Assembly: GCA_050182275.1 (NCBI GenBank)
Contig: JBFXCK010000002.1
Location: forward strand, 86,397-150,396
Source of the DNA: Dongiaceae bacterium
GTDB taxonomy: Bacteria > Pseudomonadota > Alphaproteobacteria > SHNJ01
Direction of reading: 5' to 3'
DNA: 64,000 nucleotides
The notes beneath the pieces were generated by a model. That model was given only the letters and a program-made list of their open reading frames with translations. It was not told where the DNA came from and made no database searches. Numbering within the stretch: position 1 is the first letter of the stretch; each line of letters opens with the position of its first letter. A program made the position numbers and the translations under genes. This document shows positions 2,978-26,592 of the stretch, one piece after another.

Positions 2978-3048
2978 CTCATCCTTCGACTAAGCTCAGG
3001 ATGAGCTGAATTTATAAATAGCTCATGGTGAGCTTGTCGAACCATGAG
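2978..3048. repeat. Paired palindromic hairpin repeat, locus 1. The first hairpin has a CTCATCCT stem with the reverse-orientation loop. The second has a CTCATGGT stem with loop GAGCTTGTCGA.
   Basis: gctcatccttcgactaagctcaggatgagc (2978-3006) and gctcatggtgagcttgtcgaaccatgag (3021-3048), lying between groES and groEL. The same family occurs at four other loci in the window. Confidence 0.6.
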
Positions 3049-3078
3049 TGCCAGGAAAATCTCAAAGGAGAAATTATT

Positions 3079-4731
3079 ATGGCTGCAAAACAATTATTAT
3101 TCGCTGAAGAAGGCCGCAAACGTTTAGCCCGTGGCGCTATGATGGCTGCTACGGCGGTTGGCGCAACCTTAGGCCCGTCTGGCCGCACGGCGTTATTGCA
3201 AAAATCTTTTGGCGCGCCGCGCATCACCAAAGACGGCGTAACGGTCGCCAAGGAAATCGAATTGCAAGACCCAATTGAAAATATGGGTGCGCAAATGATC
3301 AAGGAAGCCGCTTCCAAAACCGTAGATCAGGCCGGCGATGGCACGACTACAGCTTCGGTGCTGGCGGGAGCTTTGATTGACGACAGCTTGAAGTATTTGA
3401 TGGCCGGCGCCAATGTTACCGATTTGCGCCGCGGCATGGAAATGGCCTCAAGCGCTGTTGTTGAAAAATTGCTGAAAATGGCCAAGAAGGTTTCGGGCAA
3501 TAATGAAATCGCCCAAATCGGCACCATTTCGGCCAATGGCGACAAGGAAATCGGCGATATGCTGGCCAAGGCCATGGATAAAGTGGGCCATGAAGGCGTT
3601 ATCACTGTTGAAGAAGCCAAATCGATGGAAACCGAATTGGATGTTGTTGAAGGCATGCAATTCGACCGTGGCTATATCAGCCCCTATTTCGTAACCAATG
3701 CGGAAAAGATGGTGGCTGAACTCGATAATCCTTTCATTTTGGTTTATGAAAAGAAATTATCGGGTCTGCAAAGCTTGCTGCCTTTATTGGAAGCGGTTGT
3801 GCAATCGGGCCGCCCCCTAATGATCATTGCCGAAGATGTAGAAGGCGAAGCCTTGGCCACGCTCGTGGTCAACAAGCTGCGCGGCGGCTTGAAAGTGGCT
3901 GCTGTCAAAGCCCCCGGCTTTGGCGACCGCCGCAAGGCCATGCTGGAAGACATTGCGATCTTAACCAATGGTCAAATGATCAGCGAAGATTTGGGCATTA
4001 AGCTGGAGAACGTTAATTTGAAAATGCTCGGTCAAGCGAAGAAAGTGGTGATCACGAAAGAAGAAACCACCATCATCGACGGCTCGGGCAAAAAAGCCGA
4101 TGTGGAAGCGCGTTGCGATCAAATCAAGGCGCAAATCGATGAAACTTCGTCCGACTATGACAAGGAAAAGCTGCAGGAACGCTTGGCTAAGCTTTCCGGC
4201 GGCGTGGCTGTTATCCGCGTTGGCGGCGCCACCGAAGTCGAAGTCAAAGAACGCAAAGACCGTGTAGAAGACGCCATGCACGCAACCCGCGCTGCCGTTC
4301 AAGAAGGCATCGTGCCGGGCGGCGGTGTGGCCTTGATTTATGCTGGCAAGGCCTTAGATGGCTTGAAGCCTGCTAATGACGATCAACGCGCCGGCATCGA
4401 TATTGTCAAACGCGCCCTCCAAGCCCCGTTGCGCAAAATTGCGTCGAATGCGGGTGAGGATGGATCGGTTATTGTTGGCAAAGTCATGGAAGGCAAAGAC
4501 ACCAATTTCGGCTGGGACGCCTATAAGGGCGAATACACCGATTTGGTGAAAGCCGGTATCATCGACCCCGCCAAAGTGGTGCGCACCGCGCTGCAATCGG
4601 CCGTATCGGTCGCCAGCCAGTTGATCACCACCGAAACCGTCATCGCCGATATTCCGAAGAAGGAAGAATCGCATGCCGGCCATGATCATGGCGGCGGCGG
4701 TATGGGCGGCATGGGCGGAATGGGTTTCTAA
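3079..4731 (+). CDS. groEL: Chaperonin GroEL (60 kDa)
   Basis: [13 protein letters not shown]... with the Gly-Met-rich C-terminus [16 protein letters not shown] aaggag at 3065-3070. The ORF-track start at 3025 is an upstream in-frame extension; 3079 is preferred. Confidence 0.96.
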
Positions 4732-4848: not shown

Positions 4849-5667
4849 ATGCCTATCAATCTTAAAGCCCATTTTATTCCTGCTATAGCAGCGGCTGTTA
4901 CCAGTTTCAGCGCTGAAGCCGGTATTATCGCCCATGAAGCTTTTGACTATGCAACCGGCAATTTTGGCGGCACGGCCGTGCTAAATGGGGGAATAGGCTG
5001 GGGTGGCGCTTGGCAAACTCTGCCTAACCATGGCCGCATTGAATTCGGCAATTTAGATCATTCGCTGTGCCAAGAAGGTCTTGGCAACAATGCCGGCTCT
5101 TTTTCTGTCTTTACCCAAAATGAAAGTTTTATTGGCTCACGCGCCTTATCCGCGCCAGCGGGCAACGGGGAAGTGTGGCTGTCTTTTGTCAGCAGGCTTG
5201 GCACCGCTATTGGCGGACAGACGCGCGTGGAATTGGCGGGCGGTGATGCCCTTTCTCAATTTGTAGGGGCCGATTATAGCACTTTTAACGCCGGCGGCGG
5301 CCAAGTCGGCGTCCGCGCCCGCTATAGCGATACGGCACAAGAAATACAATTCAACCTTCCAGTGATTAATTTCACCGGCAATATTTTTACTGTAATGCAT
5401 TTATCGGCGGATCCGAATATTCCCGGCAATAGTTTGGTGGAATATTGGGCAGGCTTGCCATTTCAGCCTTTTGAAGATTCTTTTTACCGTTCTTTCTCCG
5501 CGCCTTCGCTTAACTATACGCATTTAAGGGCGAATGCCGGCGGCGGCAATATCGATGAAATCCGCTTGGGCACTTCGCTAGGCGATGTGTCAACCGTTCC
5601 TGTCCCCTCTATCGCCTTGCCCTTAGCGGTGATGGCAGGCTTGGCGGCCAATAGACGCTGCCGGTAG
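4849..5667 (+). CDS. Secreted protein with an N-terminal signal peptide and a C-terminal PEP-CTERM-like sorting tail (VPxP motif, hydrophobic span, RRCR).
   Basis: N-terminus MPINLKAHFIPAIAAAVTSFSAEA. C-terminus VPVPSIALPLAVMAGLAANRRCR, resembling the VPLPA- and PEP-CTERM exosortase signals. Gly- and Asn-rich beta-type body. Confidence 0.5.
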   Translation: MPINLKAHFIPAIAAAVTSFSAEAGIIAHEAFDYATGNFGGTAVLNGGIGWGGAWQTLPNHGRIEFGNLDHSLCQEGLGNNAGSFSVFTQNESFIGSRALSAPAGNGEVWLSFVSRLGTAIGGQTRVELAGGDALSQFVGADYSTFNAGGGQVGVRARYSDTAQEIQFNLPVINFTGNIFTVMHLSADPNIPGNSLVEYWAGLPFQPFEDSFYRSFSAPSLNYTHLRANAGGGNIDEIRLGTSLGDVSTVPVPSIALPLAVMAGLAANRRCR

Positions 5668-6531
5668 ATTGTTTCGCCTTCTTTTTTGGTGAGCGCCAAC
5701 GGGCCGGACTATATAAACTTCTTCATCAAGATCGCTTAAGGAAGCCTCGGCAGGTGTGTATAGCCTGCCGAACCAAGAATGCATTTCTTGAATGCTTTTG
5801 GCCATGATGTGGGGGCCGGGATGTTTACGCCAATCATAGCCGTCATATTTTTCCGGTTGACGGATGATTTTTTCCGCTTTTTCTAAATCATAATTGCTTA
5901 AGCGCAATGCATAAACCGCGCGGCGAATCCATTGACGGTTAAAAGGAGCAAATTTTTTTGCCGGATCAAGCCAGATAAAATAATGTTTTTTCCAAGCATT
6001 CACTAAAAGATAAGGCCGGTCTTTTAATCGATCAAACTCGGCAGGATCAGAAAGCAATAAATCGAATTTTCCGCCAAAAATGGCGCAAAGCTCTAACAGC
6101 TTCATTTTGTGGGCAGATGGGAAGGGCAAAAAATGCATATGCGCATGATCGGTGCAGGCGCAGCCCTGGGCTTGATGGGCGCGGTCTTCGCCGCTTAAGG
6201 CGGGGCTAGTTATTTTGGCGGTTCCATGTTCAGCAAGAACGGGATATTCATCGGTTCTAAGCTTATACGTCCAGCACATTTTTTGTAGCATATCCAAGGC
6301 TTGAGCGCGTATTGCCGGATCCATCGCCGCGAAAGAGGGATAAAATTCGTGCGGTGCGATCAGAAAATGGTGAGGAATAGCGCCAACACTGGGAAAAAAT
6401 AAAAATGGCTCTTTATCTTCACCCAGTTCCGTTATATAGGTTTGCCGGAAAGGGGCCGGATGCTGCGGCCCCAAAAAGCGGGGCAGTAATTCTTCCTTAT
6501 GCGCATCGGCGAGAGAATGGAAGATGATCAT
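5623..6531 (-). CDS. HIT-fold protein of the GalT/Ap4A-phosphorylase type, with a histidine-triad motif in the C-terminal half. Function unassigned.
   Basis: HAHMHFLPF (H-phi-H-phi-H-phi-phi) motif. 302 aa. Start codon lies 10 nt downstream of the lysS stop on the same strand, so it is probably co-transcribed. Confidence 0.4.
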   Translation of the reverse strand: MIIFHSLADAHKEELLPRFLGPQHPAPFRQTYITELGEDKEPFLFFPSVGAIPHHFLIAPHEFYPSFAAMDPAIRAQALDMLQKMCWTYKLRTDEYPVLAEHGTAKITSPALSGEDRAHQAQGCACTDHAHMHFLPFPSAHKMKLLELCAIFGGKFDLLLSDPAEFDRLKDRPYLLVNAWKKHYFIWLDPAKKFAPFNRQWIRRAVYALRLSNYDLEKAEKIIRQPEKYDGYDWRKHPGPHIMAKSIQEMHSWFGRLYTPAEASLSDLDEEVYIVRPVGAHQKRRRNNLPAASIGRQACHHR

Positions 6532-9275: not shown

Positions 9276-9441
9276 AGCGTAAAACCCACAGCGGCACGGA
9301 AAAAATTAAGGACGTACCCTTTTAAATTTGAAATAAAAAAGGAAATTACTTATTAACAATAGCATAGTAAAGAAGCTTTTAACTTTTATTAACATCTTTG
9401 AATTTTGGCTAATATATTCAAAACGCACGATTTTTACTTTT

Positions 9442-9515
9442 TTGTGCAACGCAACAAAAAGCTTGACAATAGTATATAAAACAACTAGATAGTAGTATAT
9501 TGCAGTGCAGCAAAG
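9442..9515 (+). promoter_or_regulatory. Phasin promoter region with TGC-rich repeats and a -35-like TTGACA. Candidate PhaR-type operator.
   Basis: ttgtgcaacgcaaca at 9442-9456. TTGACA at 9463-9468. ttgcagtgcagcaaag at 9500-9515. RBS aggag at 9529-9533, immediately upstream of the phasin start. Confidence 0.3.
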
Positions 9516-9539
9516 TAACCTTGACCCCAGGAGTAGATT

Positions 9540-10070
9540 ATGACGAAAACCAAACGCAAAGCGAAAACCCAAGCGAAAAAGAATTTCACCGCGCAAACCG
9601 CGCGCATGGCTAAAAATGGCGAAGCCCTTCAAGAAGCGATGAAGACGGCCCAAACCAATTATGAACGGGCTTTGGCGGCCTCTAAGGACCATATGTCCAA
9701 GGCCAGCACCACCATGTTCAGAGGCTATGATGAATTTGCTTCGCTCAGCAAAGAGAATTTGGATGCCATGGTGGCTTCCGCTCAATTATCCGCCCGTGGC
9801 GCCGAAGAAATCTACGCCGCGATGTGGTCTTGGGCGCAATCTTCCCTGGAAAGCACCGTCAGCACCGCCAAGGGCATGATGGATTGCAAGAATATCCAAG
9901 ATGTTGTTGATTTGCAAAGTTCCTACATGCGCCATTTCATGGACAATTGCATGGCCGAAGGCCAGCGCTTGGCCGAAATGTCGTTGCAAGTAACCAACGA
10001 AGCGATCGAGCCGGTAAAGGCGCGCGCTAATGATACTTTGCAAAAAATCTTAAAGCCTTTAGCCGCTTAA
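9540..10070 (+). CDS. phaP: Phasin-family PHA granule-associated protein
   Basis: 176 aa, Ala- and Lys-rich helical protein. The central FRGYDEFASLSKENLDAMVASAQ region is typical of alphaproteobacterial phasins. Confidence 0.75.
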   Translation: MTKTKRKAKTQAKKNFTAQTARMAKNGEALQEAMKTAQTNYERALAASKDHMSKASTTMFRGYDEFASLSKENLDAMVASAQLSARGAEEIYAAMWSWAQSSLESTVSTAKGMMDCKNIQDVVDLQSSYMRHFMDNCMAEGQRLAEMSLQVTNEAIEPVKARANDTLQKILKPLAA

Positions 10071-12969: not shown

Positions 12970-13155
12970 TTGATTTTAAATTATATAATAATTTCCAAAT
13001 TGACTAAAATTTAATTCCCTTAAGGTAAACTGAAACTAGCCTCAATTAGGGGCAACATTTACCTTGGGGGGAACGATGCAGGATGTGTCGTCAAGGGCTT
13101 GTGCACTGCGGACGCGTAGTGCGGAAACTCTTGTTTTATGTAGTAAAAGCCATAG

Positions 13156-13192
13156 CTGTTACACTTTCCGTGTAACGGCTTTTTGTGTTTTT
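13156..13192 (+). terminator. Terminator-like hairpin with a T-tract in the leader about 170 nt upstream of the first flagellin-like gene
   Basis: CTGTTACAC-TTTCC-GTGTAACGG followed by CTTTTTGTGTTTTT. Confidence 0.4.
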
Positions 13193-13344
13193 AATACGGC
13201 CCAAGGCTGGATCAAGCTTCCCCGCTTGAATCCCCGATGTTTCTTTGCTGCCAACGCTTTTTTCCGTTGCTTCTGTGCCGCGCCCCCCGCGGCCATAGGC
13301 GCGCGGATAAAGCGGTGGCAAGCAAAAACCCCTTATCCGGTTGA

Positions 13345-13793
13345 TGGGAGGGCCTCGCCATGAGCCTAACCATTAACTCCAACCTCGCCGCCAGCATCAG
13401 CACCCGCACGGTTCAACAAACCGACCGGGCGATGAGTGATTCGCTTGCCAAATTGGCAAGCGGCCAGCGCGTTCCGAACGCCCGCTATGACACGGCGGCG
13501 CTTAGCATTTCGGGGCGCATCCGCGGCCAAATAGTATCCTTGCAGGCGGCGGTAACGAATGTGACGCAAGCCAGCAGCTTGCTGCAAACGGTTGATGCCA
13601 CGTATCAACGCGTGCAAGACATGCTGTACCGCATGCGTGATTTATCCACGCAGGCGCAAGGCTCGCAATTATCGACGGTGGAACGCGGCATGCTGAATAC
13701 CGAGTTTCAGCAACTGAAAACCGAGATCACGCGCTTGGCGAATGGTACAACTTTTGGCGCTACTGCTTTGTTTGCGGTTGGTAACATGTCTTT
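13345..13793 (+). repeat. Direct repeat copy A: 449 bp identical to 15222..15670. It covers the RBS and the flagellin N-terminal domain.
   Basis: By visual comparison the nucleotides are identical from tgggagggcctcgccatgagc through ...tttgcggttggtaa. Confidence 0.85.
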
Positions 13794-15240
13794 CCATAGC
13801 GGGACCAATTATGCCTTGGCTGGAAGCCCAATGTCAGTCAATAGCGGCGATTTTAATGGCGATGGCATTCTAGATATTTTATCGGTGGTGGCCACAACAG
13901 CCATTCAACTGTCTTTAGGCAATAGCGATGGAACTTTCCAAGCAGCGCAAACCGTAGTTGCATCGCAATCTTCTATCACTAACTTAGTGCTCGGTGATTT
14001 TAATGGCGATGGCCGCACCGACTTCATTACCAGCGCTGCAACCGGTTTAATATATTTTGGCAATAGCAACGGCACCGTCACCCAAAGCGGGTCGATTGCT
14101 TATGGCGGCCCTAATTCCGTTACCAGTGGCGATATAAATGGCGATGGTATTGTTGATATTATCGCCAGCGTTGGCACCAACATCAATGTTTATTATGGCA
14201 ATGGCAACGGCACTTTCCAATCGGCGGTAACTTCAGCTATTGGCACCGCTTTCAGTCAATTGGTGGTTGCCGATACTAATAACGATACAATTTTGGATAT
14301 CGTGGCGTTGGATAGCGCCAACCGTCAGGTGCGCAGTTTATATGGCAATGGAGCAGGCGCCTTTACCTCGGGAACAGCCAGCGCGACTTTTGGCCAAATC
14401 TTAAGCCGCATGCAAGTCGTTGATATGAATAATGACGGCTTTTTGGATGTGTTTATCGGCGAATCCAACGGTATTTCTTCAACATATGTATTGACCAACA
14501 CTGGCCAAGGAAATTGGAATGCGTCTCAGACCATTACGCTTGGCAGCGTCAATCTTTATGCCCGGGCGGTTGATTTTAATAATGATGGGTTCATGGACAT
14601 TATCAGCGTAAACGATTTTGGCCAAACCTATACCTACCGGCAAGGAACCGGCAATTTAACCTTTGCCAATGCGGTAACTTCCAGCAGCCAGGGTTCTAAT
14701 CTTGGATATGTGGAATATGCGGATTTTAATAATGATGGCCGGATGGATTTTGTCACCCGGGCGGGCAACGGTTTCCGCGCTATTCTTAATCAAGCCACAT
14801 CCGGCTTGGAAGGTTCGGTGCGGGTAGGGGCGGGCGTTGGCAGCGGCAATGATATTTCTTACCGCAGTTTTAGCGTGGCGCTGAATAGTTTGGCGCAGGG
14901 ATTATCTTCCTCGCTTATCACTCAAACCGGCTCGGCAAAACGGGCTACAGAAACAGTCATCGCGGCGATTGATCAATTGTTGCGCTATCGCGCGAATATC
15001 GGCGCTTTATTAAACCGCCTTGAAAAAGTAGGGCAGAATTTAGATACGCTTTTAGAAAATAATGAATTAGCCCGTTCCAGCCTGATGGACGTGGATGCGG
15101 CCGAGGAAATGTCGAAATTCATTTCCTTGCAAATACTAAAAGATGCCGGGATTTCGATGCTGGCGCAAAGCAATGTAACCCACAAAAATATTTTGGCGCT
15201 GCTTGATATCGCGCCCCAAGGTGGGAGGGCCTCGCCATGA
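13360..15240 (+). CDS. Flagellin-family protein, copy 1. The N- and C-terminal helical domains are conserved, and the central variable domain is replaced by a predicted 7-bladed FG-GAP/VCBS calcium-binding beta-propeller.
   Basis: The N-terminus MSLTINSNLA...LAKLASGQRV...LQAAVTNVTQASSLLQTVDATYQRVQDMLYRMRDLSTQA aligns with FliC D0/D1. The C-terminus LRYRANIGALLNRLE...AEEMSKFISLQILKDAGISMLAQSNV aligns with the flagellin C-domain. Seven repeats of the DxNxDGxxD type, e.g. GDFNGDGILDIL and VDFNNDGFMDIIS, each preceded by a G-x-G-T-F FG-like segment. RBS gggaggg. Confidence 0.8.
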   Translation: MSLTINSNLAASISTRTVQQTDRAMSDSLAKLASGQRVPNARYDTAALSISGRIRGQIVSLQAAVTNVTQASSLLQTVDATYQRVQDMLYRMRDLSTQAQGSQLSTVERGMLNTEFQQLKTEITRLANGTTFGATALFAVGNMSFHSGTNYALAGSPMSVNSGDFNGDGILDILSVVATTAIQLSLGNSDGTFQAAQTVVASQSSITNLVLGDFNGDGRTDFITSAATGLIYFGNSNGTVTQSGSIAYGGPNSVTSGDINGDGIVDIIASVGTNINVYYGNGNGTFQSAVTSAIGTAFSQLVVADTNNDTILDIVALDSANRQVRSLYGNGAGAFTSGTASATFGQILSRMQVVDMNNDGFLDVFIGESNGISSTYVLTNTGQGNWNASQTITLGSVNLYARAVDFNNDGFMDIISVNDFGQTYTYRQGTGNLTFANAVTSSSQGSNLGYVEYADFNNDGRMDFVTRAGNGFRAILNQATSGLEGSVRVGAGVGSGNDISYRSFSVALNSLAQGLSSSLITQTGSAKRATETVIAAIDQLLRYRANIGALLNRLEKVGQNLDTLLENNELARSSLMDVDAAEEMSKFISLQILKDAGISMLAQSNVTHKNILALLDIAPQGGRASP

Positions 15241-15670
15241 GCCTAACCATTAACTCCAACCTCGCCGCCAGCATCAGCACCCGCACGGTTCAACAAACCG
15301 ACCGGGCGATGAGTGATTCGCTTGCCAAATTGGCAAGCGGCCAGCGCGTTCCGAACGCCCGCTATGACACGGCGGCGCTTAGCATTTCGGGGCGCATCCG
15401 CGGCCAAATAGTATCCTTGCAGGCGGCGGTAACGAATGTGACGCAAGCCAGCAGCTTGCTGCAAACGGTTGATGCCACGTATCAACGCGTGCAAGACATG
15501 CTGTACCGCATGCGTGATTTATCCACGCAGGCGCAAGGCTCGCAATTATCGACGGTGGAACGCGGCATGCTGAATACCGAGTTTCAGCAACTGAAAACCG
15601 AGATCACGCGCTTGGCGAATGGTACAACTTTTGGCGCTACTGCTTTGTTTGCGGTTGGTAATATGAATTT
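15222..15670 (+). repeat. Direct repeat copy B, the 449-bp partner of 13345..13793
   Basis: Identical sequence. It also supplies the last 6 codons and stop of copy 1. The ATGA overlap at 15237-15240 couples the stop of copy 1 to the start of copy 2. Confidence 0.85.
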
Positions 15671-17108
15671 TAGCAGCAGCACCAATTATAGCCTGGGAGC
15701 TAGCCCTTCCTCTTTTCAGGTGGCTGATTTCACCGGAGATGGATTTGCAGATATTGTAACAATGGATAGTAACGATGATCTGCTAATTAGGCAAGGTGAT
15801 GGCAATGGAGGCTTTGGTCCGGCTTCTAGTATTTCCGTTTTGCTTGCTACTTCTCTCATTGCCGCCGGTGATTTTAATGGCGACGGAAGAACGGATATCT
15901 TCACTGGCGGATCTTTAGCTGGTGTATTTTTAAGCAATGGTAATGGAACCTTTACTTCAGGGGGTTCAATGGCCATTGGCGGGATTTCCAGTCTGAATGT
16001 AGCAGACCTGAATGGCGATGGTTTTCAAGATGTAGTAACCACGATCGGGATTGGCGGCTTCGTCAATGTGTATTTAGGAAATGGTAATGGTACTTTTGCC
16101 AGCGTGTTATCTAGCACTCCGGTAACAGTAGCAGGACAAACAGTTTTAGGCGATGTCAACAACGATGGCATTATAGACGCAATTGTTTACGATTCCGCAA
16201 ATACACGCGTTCAAACATTAATTGGCAATGGCAACGGAACTTTTACCACCGGGGCGGTAAGCGCTAATTTTGGGGCAAATCTGAGTACACCGCAGTTAGT
16301 TGATTTTAATAATGATGGTTTCTTGGATTATTATGTTGGGGATTCGAATGGTATTTCTTCCAGTTATTTACTTATCAATAACGGGCAAGGTGGGTGGAAT
16401 ACCCCGCAAACAATTGCGATTGGCACCATTAATGGCAATGCTTACGCCGCTGATTTTAACGCCGATGGCAATGTGGATATTATTAGCACTGGTGGCGCGG
16501 GGCAGACTTTCTCTTACCGTCAAGGGACAGGCATTATAACCTTCGCTTCTGCTGTAACTTCTGCTGCGCAGGGCGCTACGATCGGGCAAGCACGATATGC
16601 GGATATAAATAATGATGGAAGGCTTGATGTTATTTTAGGAGCAGGTTCGAATCTAAGGGTCATTTTAAATCAGGCCGTTGTAGGATTAGAGGGTTCGGTA
16701 CGAGTAGGATCGGGCGCTGGAAACGGCAATGATATTGCCCTTCGCAGTTTCGGTATAACTCTAAATAATTTATCTCAAGGCCTGGCTTTTTCCGTCATTA
16801 CCCAAATTGGATCCGCCAAACGGGCAACAACAAATGTCATCGCTGCGATTGATCAATTGTTGCGCTATCGCGCGAATATCGGCGCTTTGTTGAACCGCCT
16901 TGAAAAAGTAGGGCAGAATTTAGATACGCTTTTAGAAAATAATGAATTAGCCCGTTCCAGCCTGATGGACGTGGATGCGGCCGAGGAAATGTCGAAATTC
17001 ATATCTTTGCAAATACTAAGAGATGCCGGGATTTCGATGCTGGCGCAAAGCAAGGTAACCCAGCAAAACCTCGTGCTCTTGTTTCAATATGCTCCTAAGT
17101 TTCAATAA
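15237..17108 (+). CDS. Flagellin-family protein, copy 2 (623 aa). Same architecture as copy 1, with a divergent 7-blade FG-GAP propeller.
   Basis: The first 147 aa are identical to copy 1. The C-terminal 80 aa are about 95% identical. Seven DxNxDG repeats (ADFTGDGFADIV ... ADINNDGRLDVIL) are collinear with copy 1 but only about half identical. Confidence 0.8.
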   Translation: MSLTINSNLAASISTRTVQQTDRAMSDSLAKLASGQRVPNARYDTAALSISGRIRGQIVSLQAAVTNVTQASSLLQTVDATYQRVQDMLYRMRDLSTQAQGSQLSTVERGMLNTEFQQLKTEITRLANGTTFGATALFAVGNMNFSSSTNYSLGASPSSFQVADFTGDGFADIVTMDSNDDLLIRQGDGNGGFGPASSISVLLATSLIAAGDFNGDGRTDIFTGGSLAGVFLSNGNGTFTSGGSMAIGGISSLNVADLNGDGFQDVVTTIGIGGFVNVYLGNGNGTFASVLSSTPVTVAGQTVLGDVNNDGIIDAIVYDSANTRVQTLIGNGNGTFTTGAVSANFGANLSTPQLVDFNNDGFLDYYVGDSNGISSSYLLINNGQGGWNTPQTIAIGTINGNAYAADFNADGNVDIISTGGAGQTFSYRQGTGIITFASAVTSAAQGATIGQARYADINNDGRLDVILGAGSNLRVILNQAVVGLEGSVRVGSGAGNGNDIALRSFGITLNNLSQGLAFSVITQIGSAKRATTNVIAAIDQLLRYRANIGALLNRLEKVGQNLDTLLENNELARSSLMDVDAAEEMSKFISLQILRDAGISMLAQSKVTQQNLVLLFQYAPKFQ

Positions 17109-26420: not shown

Positions 26421-26592
26421 AAAAAATAAGCCAAAACTCAAACCCCTTGCAATTTCTTTAGATTTTGCTATAAAACCCCCACTTCTCACGCGGGAGCTGC
26501 GTGGCTTATTTCAATCAATAGGCTAACGCATCCGGTGCCTGATGGTCAGGTGCTTTGCCCCGCGGCGGATTAACCGGATGAAAGGAACTATA

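Follow-up and report, generated by a model that had tools for sequence, protein, structure and literature searches.

Propeller flagellins at the locus

The window, by which is meant the whole 64-kb stretch of DNA that was analysed, comes from an uncultured alphaproteobacterium. Its ORF list contains two adjacent flagellin ORFs, both on the + strand and in the same orientation:

13360-15240, + strand: copy 1, an ORF of 626 aa with the C-terminal tail ...APQGGRASP-stop
15237-17108, + strand: copy 2, an ORF of 623 aa with the native C-terminus ...YAPKFQ-stop

Pfam gives the two proteins the same domain order, and the ORFs and Pfam together bear out the first-pass annotation, which had described two tandem flagellin-like copies with propeller blades. 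Flagellin_N (PF00669) covers residues 5-139 in both copies at 81.8 bits (cut-off 26.6). Flagellin_C (PF00700) covers residues 533/534-615 (533-615 in copy 1) and reaches 55.5 and 56.8 bits, where the cut-off is 23. Between them, FG-GAP_3 (PF13517) matches seven stretches per copy (E = 9e-49 and 4e-42). The outer domain usual for a flagellin is thus replaced in both proteins by a seven-bladed FG-GAP β-propeller.

The AlphaFold2 model of copy 2 (mean pLDDT 74) has helices at residues 2-34, 45-100 and 106-129 in the N-terminal region (2-129) and at 524-621, and an all-β region at 145-502 with a pLDDT of about 75-89. The best Foldseek matches to this model are flagellar filaments (9au6, 9n59, 7sn4 and 9gnz). 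Propellers are also matched, including CRTAC1 (9etn; 403 columns, rmsd 6.0), KICSTOR, the BBSome and integrin alpha-IIb (3fcu), and a phmmer search against the PDB matched flagellins with E down to 1e-29. Copy 2 carries seven D-x-[DN]-x-D-G-x-x-D loops, starting at residues 164, 212, 257, 306, 356, 406 and 456, and among 13 family members the D/N/G columns at 164-172, 212-220, 257-265, 306-314, 356-364, 406-414 and 456-464 are invariant. The loops are putatively of the Ca-binding type. Both proteins are flagellins and are predicted to form filaments; no flagellar apparatus genes were found within the 64-kb window.

The NCBIfam flagellin models align to the termini only, and none of their cut-offs was reached (best 128.6 bits versus 332, for NF009444), as is to be expected of a flagellin with a foreign domain in it. 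It is for want of these cut-offs that the database name makes no reference to flagellin: the copy 1 protein has the very sequence of P0002 at NCBI, which is entered as [quoted passage not shown].

A mosaic of homogenised ends and divergent propellers

Comparison of the two copies divides them into the following segments:

13345-13784, + strand: first arm of the 5' repeat, a run of 440 bp with 0/440 mismatches and no leftward extension
15222-15661, + strand: second arm of the 5' repeat, the same as 13345-13784; its opening 15-19 nt double as the last codons and stop of copy 1
13785-14955, + strand: divergent middle of copy 1, blades 1-7 and the linker back to D1
15662-16835, + strand: divergent middle of copy 2, blades 1-7 and linker
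14956-15171, + strand: 3' homogenised block of copy 1, 97.2% identical to 16836-17051 (6 mismatches in 216 bp)
16836-17051, + strand: 3' homogenised block of copy 2, counterpart of 14956-15171
15172-15221, + strand: divergent C-terminal tail of copy 1, sharing 54% of its bases with copy 2 at 17052-17101 (pS 0.76, saturated)

The mosaic divergence reported by the first-pass annotation is real, though several of its details were wrong. The 5' repeat starts 15 nt upstream of each ATG (13345 and 15222) and consists of a 15-nt leader with the SD sequence GGGAGGG, followed by 141 complete codons and 2 nt. It had been given as 449 bp and 147 codons, but those 449 bp hold three mismatches; the perfect run is 440 bp, an identity that may be a little too high if near-identical repeats were merged during short-read assembly or polishing. 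Codons 1-141 make up the N-terminal D0/D1 core segment, and the run ends at codon 142, close to the Pfam end of Flagellin_N at residue 139. All of the same-amino-acid codons in the block are identical between the copies (136/136; dS = 0). It had also been supposed that deletion through these direct repeats would yield a chimeric gene; with repeats of 440 bp, what such a loss leaves behind would be copy 2 itself and no chimera.

The 3' block spans most of Flagellin_C (the C-terminal D1/D0) and begins at residue 535, where Pfam places the start of the domain at 533-534. Identical codons make up 60 of its 64 same-amino-acid codons, with a dS of 0.095. A block of about 97% identity had been correctly recognised, but it is 216 bp long and not terminal, as opposed to the last ~240 bp of the gene: the last 240 bp of copy 1 are 82.5% identical to the in-register bases of copy 2. 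The extreme C-terminal tail of copy 1, with its saturated synonymous sites, has escaped homogenisation.

In the middle, the copies share 52% amino-acid and 58% nucleotide identity (52-62% at the nucleotide level for the propeller part). Synonymous sites there have a pS of 0.69-0.76 and a dS that is about 2 or saturated, and 94 of 201 same-amino-acid codons are identical, compared to a fraction of ~0.42 expected under random codon choice. The amino-acid identity of blades 1-4 is 41-42%, in keeping with the half identity originally estimated. Blades 5-7, at 59%, are intermediate in protein as had been stated, but not in their same-amino-acid codons, which are equally randomised (42/88 identical, against 35/76 in blades 1-4). 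Propeller GC3 is higher in copy 1 (0.48) than in copy 2 (0.36). The divergence of the blades had been ascribed to diversifying selection. The data lend this view no support: dS is saturated in the window pair, and orthologous propellers of relatives have a dN/dS of about 0.09 and 0.02, values that point to strong purifying selection.

The longest run of identical codons among the 411 same-amino-acid codons is 136, a length reached in 0 of 100,000 shuffles, where the maximum was 44. By Fisher's test, the 5' block differs from the middle with p = 1e-31 and the 3' block with p = 1e-12. Such a synonymous-codon mosaic is beyond the reach of protein-level selection, and the termini were therefore homogenised in DNA, in agreement with the earlier view that they had undergone gene conversion. 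The two blocks also differ from each other (0/440 mismatches versus 6/216, Fisher p = 0.0012), which argues for repeated conversion events, although the window pair is only two sequences, in which the direction and number of events are indistinguishable. The 5' tract is the young one and the 3' tract the older.

The junction between the genes

The two copies meet in a short stretch that serves both genes:

15222-15240, + strand: duplication junction, in which the copy 2 SD and spacer are the copy 1 codons G-R-A-S-P

The stop of copy 1 and the start of copy 2 overlap as ATGA at 15237-15240, and the copy 2 SD sequence GGGAGGG lies 6-12 nt upstream of the ATG, within the codons of the copy 1 tail (...QGGRASP-stop). 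The junction ORFs and the tail thus agree with the initial description of an RBS reused as end codons of copy 1 and an ATGA overlap. The arrangement had been attributed to this particular duplication, but it recurs in the arrays of relatives. The junctions of L005, one such array, read ...NGGDA-stop and ...NGGDE-stop with TAATG, and that of L003, another, reads ...LLEGGAF-stop, followed by 1 nt and then ATG. Placing the SD of the next gene inside tail codons, with an overlap or gap of 0-4 nt, is a family trait.

Given an SD inside the end of the copy 1 ORF and a start codon that overlaps the copy 1 stop, copy 2 probably depends on the transcript of copy 1 for its expression. The two genes are probably co-transcribed, and translational coupling of copy 2 to copy 1 is possible. 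No promoter was identified for the gene pair: a scan with a sigma-70-like consensus found 12 sites, against 8.7 ± 3.2 expected, which amounts to chance, and none was prominent inside copy 1. It is plausible that copy 2 has no promoter of its own.

Arrays in related genomes

In related MAGs, propeller-flagellin genes stand two or three to an array on long contigs, such as the 90.8-kb contig that holds the L005 array. The same MAGs also encode ordinary short flagellins. Two of these MAGs supply the test: in the propeller tree, L005_A groups with L003_b (bootstrap 100), L005_C with L003_c (92) and L005_B with L009 (100). In the termini tree, L003_b and L003_c are grouped with a bootstrap of 100. 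The orthologues L005_A and L003_b share 81% amino-acid identity in the propeller, 78% at the N-terminus and 72% at the C-terminus, and the paralogues L003_b and L003_c share 41%, 87% and 90%, respectively. These conflicting trees exclude independent duplication in the relatives and show the conversion to be domain-limited. Gene conversion, as first suggested for the window, is thus also seen in relatives, where propellers pair across genomes and termini cluster by genome; concerted evolution there is limited to the core-forming segments.

This paralogue-versus-orthologue comparison rests on L003/L009 versus L005 and not on the window pair, whose members (W_c1 and W_c2) are sisters in both the propeller and the termini trees. 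The collections searched hold no close relative of the window genome, and the nearest outside homologue is ~41% identical.

A third paralogue is present in the same assembly as the pair but unlinked to it (L154:8001-9917). It is only 56% identical to the pair at the N-terminus and 63-65% at the C-terminus, and homogenisation is therefore confined to tandem neighbours. Its GC3 is 0.67 at the N-terminus and 0.41-0.49 in the blades.

Proposed recombination between neighbours and its alternatives

The favoured reading, with a probability of roughly 0.8, is that the pair arose by an old duplication, and that recombination between the neighbours has repeatedly overwritten the core-encoding segments and left the propellers divergent. 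The duplication would be old because the synonymous sites of the propellers and the extreme C-terminal tail are saturated. We infer that the overwriting would occur by homologous recombination between the adjacent copies, either as intrachromosomal gene conversion or as unequal sister-chromatid exchange. One very recent tract would take in the SD along with codons 1-141, without a difference in 440 bp, and a somewhat older one most of Flagellin_C, with 6 differences in 216 bp. Both would end at the flagellin/propeller domain borders, where the DNA would be too divergent for pairing. The result would be two subunits with a common lattice-forming core and two distinct surfaces, and the common core would let both subunits co-polymerise in one filament. 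The propellers may have an adhesive or ligand-binding role.

An unlikely alternative course of events is a very recent tandem duplication of the whole gene, after which recombination replaced one propeller cassette by a diverged allele of another strain or species, so that the identical ends are leftovers. The sister relationship of the two copies in both trees is in its favour, as are the lack of a known orthologue of either propeller elsewhere in the collections searched and the different GC3 of the two propellers. There is also precedent: among the H antigens of enterobacteria, flagellins are well known to have exchanged their central regions by lateral transfer. However, the terminal 50 nt lie outside the propeller and are only 54% identical with a saturated pS, so that a further, independent replacement has to be assumed for them. 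The two blocks differ in age, whereas relics of a single duplication should match. Low propeller GC3 is found family-wide, also in the unlinked paralogue that is not homogenised, and terminal conversion is demonstrable in relatives.

Less probable still is an assembly artefact, in which strain alleles were joined, repeats collapsed or the copy number misjudged. The first-pass annotation had raised this worry, and reasonably so: the source assembly is a MAG, the 440-bp exact repeat is longer than short-read k-mers, contig L009 of a related MAG ends in a 55-nt exact repeat common to another flagellin copy, and L003 begins inside a flagellin copy. Nevertheless, the tandem order itself is real. 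The junction between the copy 1 tail and the SD (15210-15240) is unique sequence, beyond the invention of an assembler, and since the repeat graph has a single entry, a single exit and a single junction, no path through it is simpler than the observed order. GCA_050247815.1, another public record, is base-identical across 14 kb that include both copies, and the two- or three-copy arrays of relatives, as in L005, share the SD-in-tail design on long contigs. The copy number may be above two, as additional copy 1 units.

Identity of the ends solely through purifying selection on the filament core or codon bias, without recombination, fits the status of D0/D1 as the most conserved flagellin parts, with many invariant columns in the family alignment, but is refuted by the synonymous-site data: all 136 codons are identical at synonymous sites too, as are the 15 non-coding or out-of-frame nt upstream, while over the same terminal segments L005 paralogues show a dS of 1.0-1.4 and only 34 of 75 same-amino-acid codons are identical between the pair and the unlinked paralogue.

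Comparison with known systems

Tandem flagellins are already known to evolve in concert. For the tandem fla genes of Campylobacter, concerted evolution and intragenomic recombination were described by Meinersmann & Hiett (2000) and Harrington et al. (1997), as cited in PMC5126078. The flaA and flaB genes share ~95% identity from end to end, and each has its own promoter, one for sigma-28 and the other for sigma-54 (PMC5126078). Like the window pair, they are adjacent, co-oriented flagellin genes held similar by inter-copy recombination. However, the window pair is homogenised at the core-encoding ends only, with outer domains that are dS-saturated, and its genes overlap by ATGA and show no second promoter that could be recognised. 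In the Alteromonadales, too, tandem fla genes have long evolved in concert, and there likewise the paralogues of one genome resemble each other more than orthologues of different genomes do (PMC6053082). That survey used whole genes (PMC6053082). Here, by contrast, the propeller and termini trees conflict.

The enterobacterial H-antigen flagellins FliC and FljB have conserved termini and a hypervariable centre. They resemble the window pair in their core-forming termini, differing central surface domain and breakpoints at the borders of conserved regions. Unlike the window pair, their genes are neither tandem nor overlapping, the variation is between alleles or phase-variable loci, and their outer domains are D2/D3 folds rather than β-propellers.

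Flagellin outer domains fall into structural clusters (PMC11532411), and “giant flagellins” are known (Thomson et al. 2018, as cited in 10.1101/2022.05.16.490919). As in flagellins with a large outer domain, a folded module several hundred residues long is inserted into the D0/D1 core of the proteins described here. The literature searched yielded no paper joining flagellin to an FG-GAP, VCBS or β-propeller outer domain. Being named “FG-GAP-like” and falling below the NCBIfam cut-offs, these proteins would be absent from surveys of annotated flagellins, and the family appears to be previously undescribed. A broader proposal is tentative, and rather doubtful as a whole: that this is an undescribed flagellin family with a Ca-binding FG-GAP propeller as outer domain, carried as translationally linked arrays of 2-3 ancient types, in which domain-limited conversion would keep the cores interchangeable and give each filament several ligand-binding surfaces. 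If true, the filament would be a modular adhesive or sensing structure and not a plain propeller.

The closest structural parallel to the outer domain is found in the FG-GAP/integrin-alpha propellers, such as those of CRTAC1 and integrin alpha-IIb, which likewise have seven repeats, each with a D-x-D/N-x-D-G-x-x-D loop. The fold match has a TM of ~0.4, normalised to the whole 623-aa query. However, the known FG-GAP propellers occur in receptors, adhesins and giant multi-propeller surface proteins, whereas here the propeller splits the two halves of a flagellin.

The propeller flagellins

Two co-oriented genes whose reading frames overlap by ATGA make up the tandem pair:

13360-15240, plus strand: copy 1, open reading frame of 626 aa
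15237-17108, plus strand: copy 2, open reading frame of 623 aa

In both proteins, a Flagellin_N domain (residues 5-139) is followed by seven FG-GAP_3 repeats and a Flagellin_C domain (533/534-615), all Pfam matches being well over the curated cut-offs. In the AlphaFold2 model of copy 2, with a mean pLDDT of 74, residues 2-129 and 524-621 form long helices and residues 145-502 an all-beta part. Foldseek comparison with the PDB matched the helical part to flagellar filament subunits (9au6, 9n59, 7sn4 and 9gnz) and the middle to beta-propellers, including those of the FG-GAP/integrin type (CRTAC1 9etn, KICSTOR, the BBSome and integrin alpha-IIb). Every blade contains a loop of the Ca-binding type (D-x-[DN]-x-D-G-x-x-D) that forms invariant columns across 13 family members.

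Homologues of the same architecture are found at about 40% identity. When 1.84 billion representative proteins were searched with a profile, 13 full-length members came up among the best 150 matches, and at a 50% identity threshold this small family forms at least 13 clusters among these 150; many giant multi-propeller proteins were also matched and dominate the listing. Relatives were sought in genomes with an 8-sequence alignment. A metagenome scan with copy 2 found no close relative, and back-translated FG-GAP peptides drew generic propeller proteins. Databases mis-name family members as generic FG-GAP proteins, and the two window proteins are no exception: each has an identical NCBI MAG entry under the name [quoted passage not shown]. 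No NCBIfam flagellin model reached its cut-off with either of them (best score 128.6 bits versus 332). With a generic name and scores below the cut-off, the family would be missed by annotation-based flagellin surveys.

Extent of the mosaic

The first-pass annotation described the pair as a mosaic with homogenized ends and a divergent middle. This pattern is real, although its coordinates and extents needed revision. The direct repeat starts at 13345 and 15222, with no leftward extension, and is perfect over 440 bp, up to 13784 and 15661; the 449 bp of identity originally claimed contains three mismatches. The repeat consists of a 15 nt leader with the Shine-Dalgarno (SD) sequence GGGAGGG, followed by 141 codons and 2 nt. 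At the other end, a 216 bp block (14956-15171 versus 16836-17051) has six mismatches and is 97.2% identical. This 3' block is not terminal, and identity is just 54% over the final 50 aligned bases (15172-15221 versus 17052-17101). For the terminal 240 bp of copy 1, previously put at about 97%, comparison with the in-register part of copy 2 gives 82.5%. The block edges lie only a few codons from the end of Flagellin_N and the start of Flagellin_C. Between them, the copies share 52% amino-acid and 58% nucleotide identity, with 41-42% amino-acid identity in blades 1-4 and 59% in blades 5-7.

The junction proved to be as first described: copy 1 ends in ...APQGGRASP and a stop, and its final codons double as SD and spacer for copy 2. 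The ATGA overlap and the internal SD suggest that the pair is co-transcribed, and copy 2 is possibly translationally coupled to copy 1.

Synonymous sites and selection

Among codons that specify the same amino acid in both copies, the fraction using the same codon was determined. It was 136/136 in the 5' block and 60/64 in the 3' block, versus 94/201 (47%) in the propeller and linker, where 42% would be expected if codons were drawn at random from the usage of these genes (Fisher tests of the two blocks against the middle, p = 1e-31 and p = 1e-12). The short tail had 2/6. The longest run of identical codons was 136, and the maximum in 100,000 shuffles was 44. By the Nei-Gojobori method, dS is 0 for the 5' block and 0.095 for the 3' block; the middle is at about 2 or saturated, and the tail is saturated as well. 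In mismatches the two blocks are also unlike (0/440 versus 6/216, p = 0.0012), which implies events of different age.

The gene conversion proposed in the first-pass annotation is supported by the analysis, but the diversifying selection on the blades that went with it is not. Since dS is saturated in the pair’s own blades, dN/dS is not interpretable there, and orthologues from relatives were used in its place. Orthologous propellers gave a dN/dS of about 0.09 for blades 1-4 and about 0.02 for blades 5-7, which is purifying.

A third, unlinked paralogue

The profile search also picked up a family member on another contig of the same genome assembly:

L154:8001-9917 (GCA_050247815.1, contig JBFWTN010000002.1): solo propeller flagellin, P0239, 638 aa

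This solo gene is flanked by SIMPL and MlaC/MlaA genes. Its N-terminus is 56% identical to that of the pair in amino acids and 61% in nucleotides; in amino acids, its C-terminus reaches 63-65% identity and its blades 30-39%. With termini just 56-65% identical to those of the pair, the solo copy has escaped homogenization, which thus reaches adjacent copies only. In blades 1-4, the 41% identity between copies 1 and 2 is barely above that of either copy to the solo paralogue (36-39%).

GC3 within propeller-flagellin genes is 0.66-0.67 in the N-terminal segment and 0.36-0.49 in the propellers, with neighboring genes at 0.56-0.65. This was considered as a sign of GC-biased conversion or of a foreign copy 2 propeller, but was dropped because the non-homogenized solo paralogue is alike (N-terminus 0.67, propeller 0.41-0.49); the contrast is thus intrinsic to the family.

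Arrays in related genomes

Arrays of the same kind are found in MAGs of related uncultured alphaproteobacteria:

L005:6380-12050 = L001:4211-9881: three-copy array (A, B, C) in a related MAG
L003:1-3991: array of at least three copies in another related MAG
L009:4073-5889: further copy in the same MAG as L003

In L005, the stop and start of neighboring copies have one base in common (TAATG), and the tails (...NGGDA and ...NGGDE, each then stop) are a reading of the next gene’s GGAGGTG. The L003 tails end in ...LLEGGAF and a stop, followed by 1 nt and then ATG. The recurrence of an SD within the tail makes this design a family trait rather than an accident of the window duplication.

A neighbor-joining tree of the propellers pairs copies across the two genomes: L005_A with L003_b (bootstrap 100), L005_C with L003_c (92) and L005_B with L009 (100). 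This grouping indicates that the three propeller types are old and common to both genomes. In the neighbor-joining tree of the termini, L003_b groups with L003_c (100), and L009, which belongs to the same MAG, is their nearest neighbor. Amino-acid identity between the orthologues L005_A and L003_b is 81% in the propeller, 78% in the N-terminus and 72% in the C-terminus, whereas the paralogues L003_b and L003_c have 41% in the propeller versus 87% in the N-terminus, 90% in the C-terminus and 93% in the tail. The relatives thus show concerted evolution restricted to the core-encoding segments.

The order of propeller types from the groES-side leader seems to differ, being A-B-C in one MAG and B-type first in the other. 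MAGs with propeller flagellins also have several ordinary short flagellin genes (L010, L011, L013, L014, L018 and L019), often in tandem, with at least four on L013. The propeller type thus comes on top of a conventional set.

Mechanism and alternatives

The pattern is best explained by an old tandem duplication in which the core-encoding ends would have been overwritten again and again by homologous recombination between neighboring copies, through either gene conversion or unequal sister-chromatid exchange, and the diverged propeller DNA would set the limit of the tracts. Identical D0/D1 segments would keep both subunits compatible in one filament lattice, and this compatibility may favor fixation of the conversions. 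Copy-number instability of the pair is plausible. Deletion between the 440 bp repeats would not yield the chimeric gene first envisaged; what would remain is copy 2 itself, preceded by the copy 1 leader. A chimera would arise only by exchange in the 3' block, and then in the tail only.

A recent duplication followed by import of a foreign propeller cassette is an unlikely origin for the pair, given that the tail beyond the 3' block is divergent, that the two blocks are of unequal age and that the relatives behave as they do.

Less probable still is an assembly artefact. The last 55 nt of contig L009 repeat exactly part of another flagellin copy’s C-terminal block (L009:5835-5889 = L003:3852-3906), which shows that such repeats break short-read assemblies, and extra copy-1 units or a collapsed consensus within the 440 bp block would be compatible with the assembled sequence. 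Nevertheless, the junction sequence is unique, the path through the repeat graph is forced, a second public record is base-identical, and the same architecture is present on long contigs of the relatives. Contig L003, too, begins inside a flagellin copy (L003:1-230), making the homogenized ends break points of these short-read MAG assemblies, and caution is needed with the copy number and gene order that MAGs report.

Selection on the protein alone, with no recombination, is refuted by the synonymous-site data, since purifying selection on protein cannot explain why synonymous positions and the leader are identical too.

Genomic neighborhood

The tandem pair lies among housekeeping genes (MIP, HIT, a double LOG gene, proS, dnaE and an rpsB-tsf-pyrH-frr-uppS-cdsA-dxr-rseP-bamA-lpxD/A cluster), and no other flagellar genes were found within the 64-kb window. 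Neither a sigma-28-like (TAAA-N15-GCCGATAA) nor a sigma-54-like site was found upstream of copy 1, and sigma-70-like matches were at chance level, so that a promoter was not identified.

As RNA, the intergenic stretch between HIT and copy 1 (13040-13200, plus strand) has an unusually stable predicted fold (MFE -62.4 kcal/mol, z = -5.1, 0/200 shuffles as stable), with an 11-bp hairpin (13154-13180) at its end and TTTTTGTGTTTTT after that. This stretch may encode an unannotated small RNA or may be the terminator/3'UTR of HIT. The second assembly’s contig stops inside this stretch, at window position 13072. Rfam gave no match at E <= 1 between 12000 and 18000, and only two in the window at gathering score:

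26485-26591, plus strand: rpsB leader/sRNA, directly upstream of rpsB
61830-61902, plus strand: tRNA

Five window ORFs of 159-302 aa had no Pfam match at the thresholds used: 4849-5667 (+), 5623-6531 (-), 9306-9785 (-), 61952-62839 (+) and 63039-63701 (+).

Upstream of copy A in L005 (about 6080-6115), and likewise in the upstream region of L009, is a perfect CIRCE-type inverted repeat, TTAGCACTC-N9-GAGTGCTAA. It sits between a divergent groES-groEL and the flagellin array, so that the array in these relatives abuts the control region of a heat-shock operon. In the window, groEL (3025-4731) is about 9 kb upstream of the pair.

Comparison with known tandem flagellins

The diversity of flagellin outer domains is well recognized (PMC11532411, with 682 outer-domain clusters), but the literature searched yielded no description of a flagellin family in which an FG-GAP propeller is the outer domain. 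The beta-propeller family is a more novel aspect than the conversion. It lends itself well, as a natural system, to studying how the borders of conversion tracts depend on sequence divergence, and whether the need for co-assembly selects for homogenization.

Concerted evolution of tandem flagellin genes is already established, as for Campylobacter flaA/flaB (Meinersmann & Hiett 2000; Harrington 1997, both as cited in PMC5126078), and conserved termini are already known to serve as recombination substrates in such genes. The window pair is a clean further example. Where this family differs from the known tandem flagellins is that conversion is strictly domain-limited, and that, through the relatives, it can be demonstrated against outer domains that persist as orthologues.
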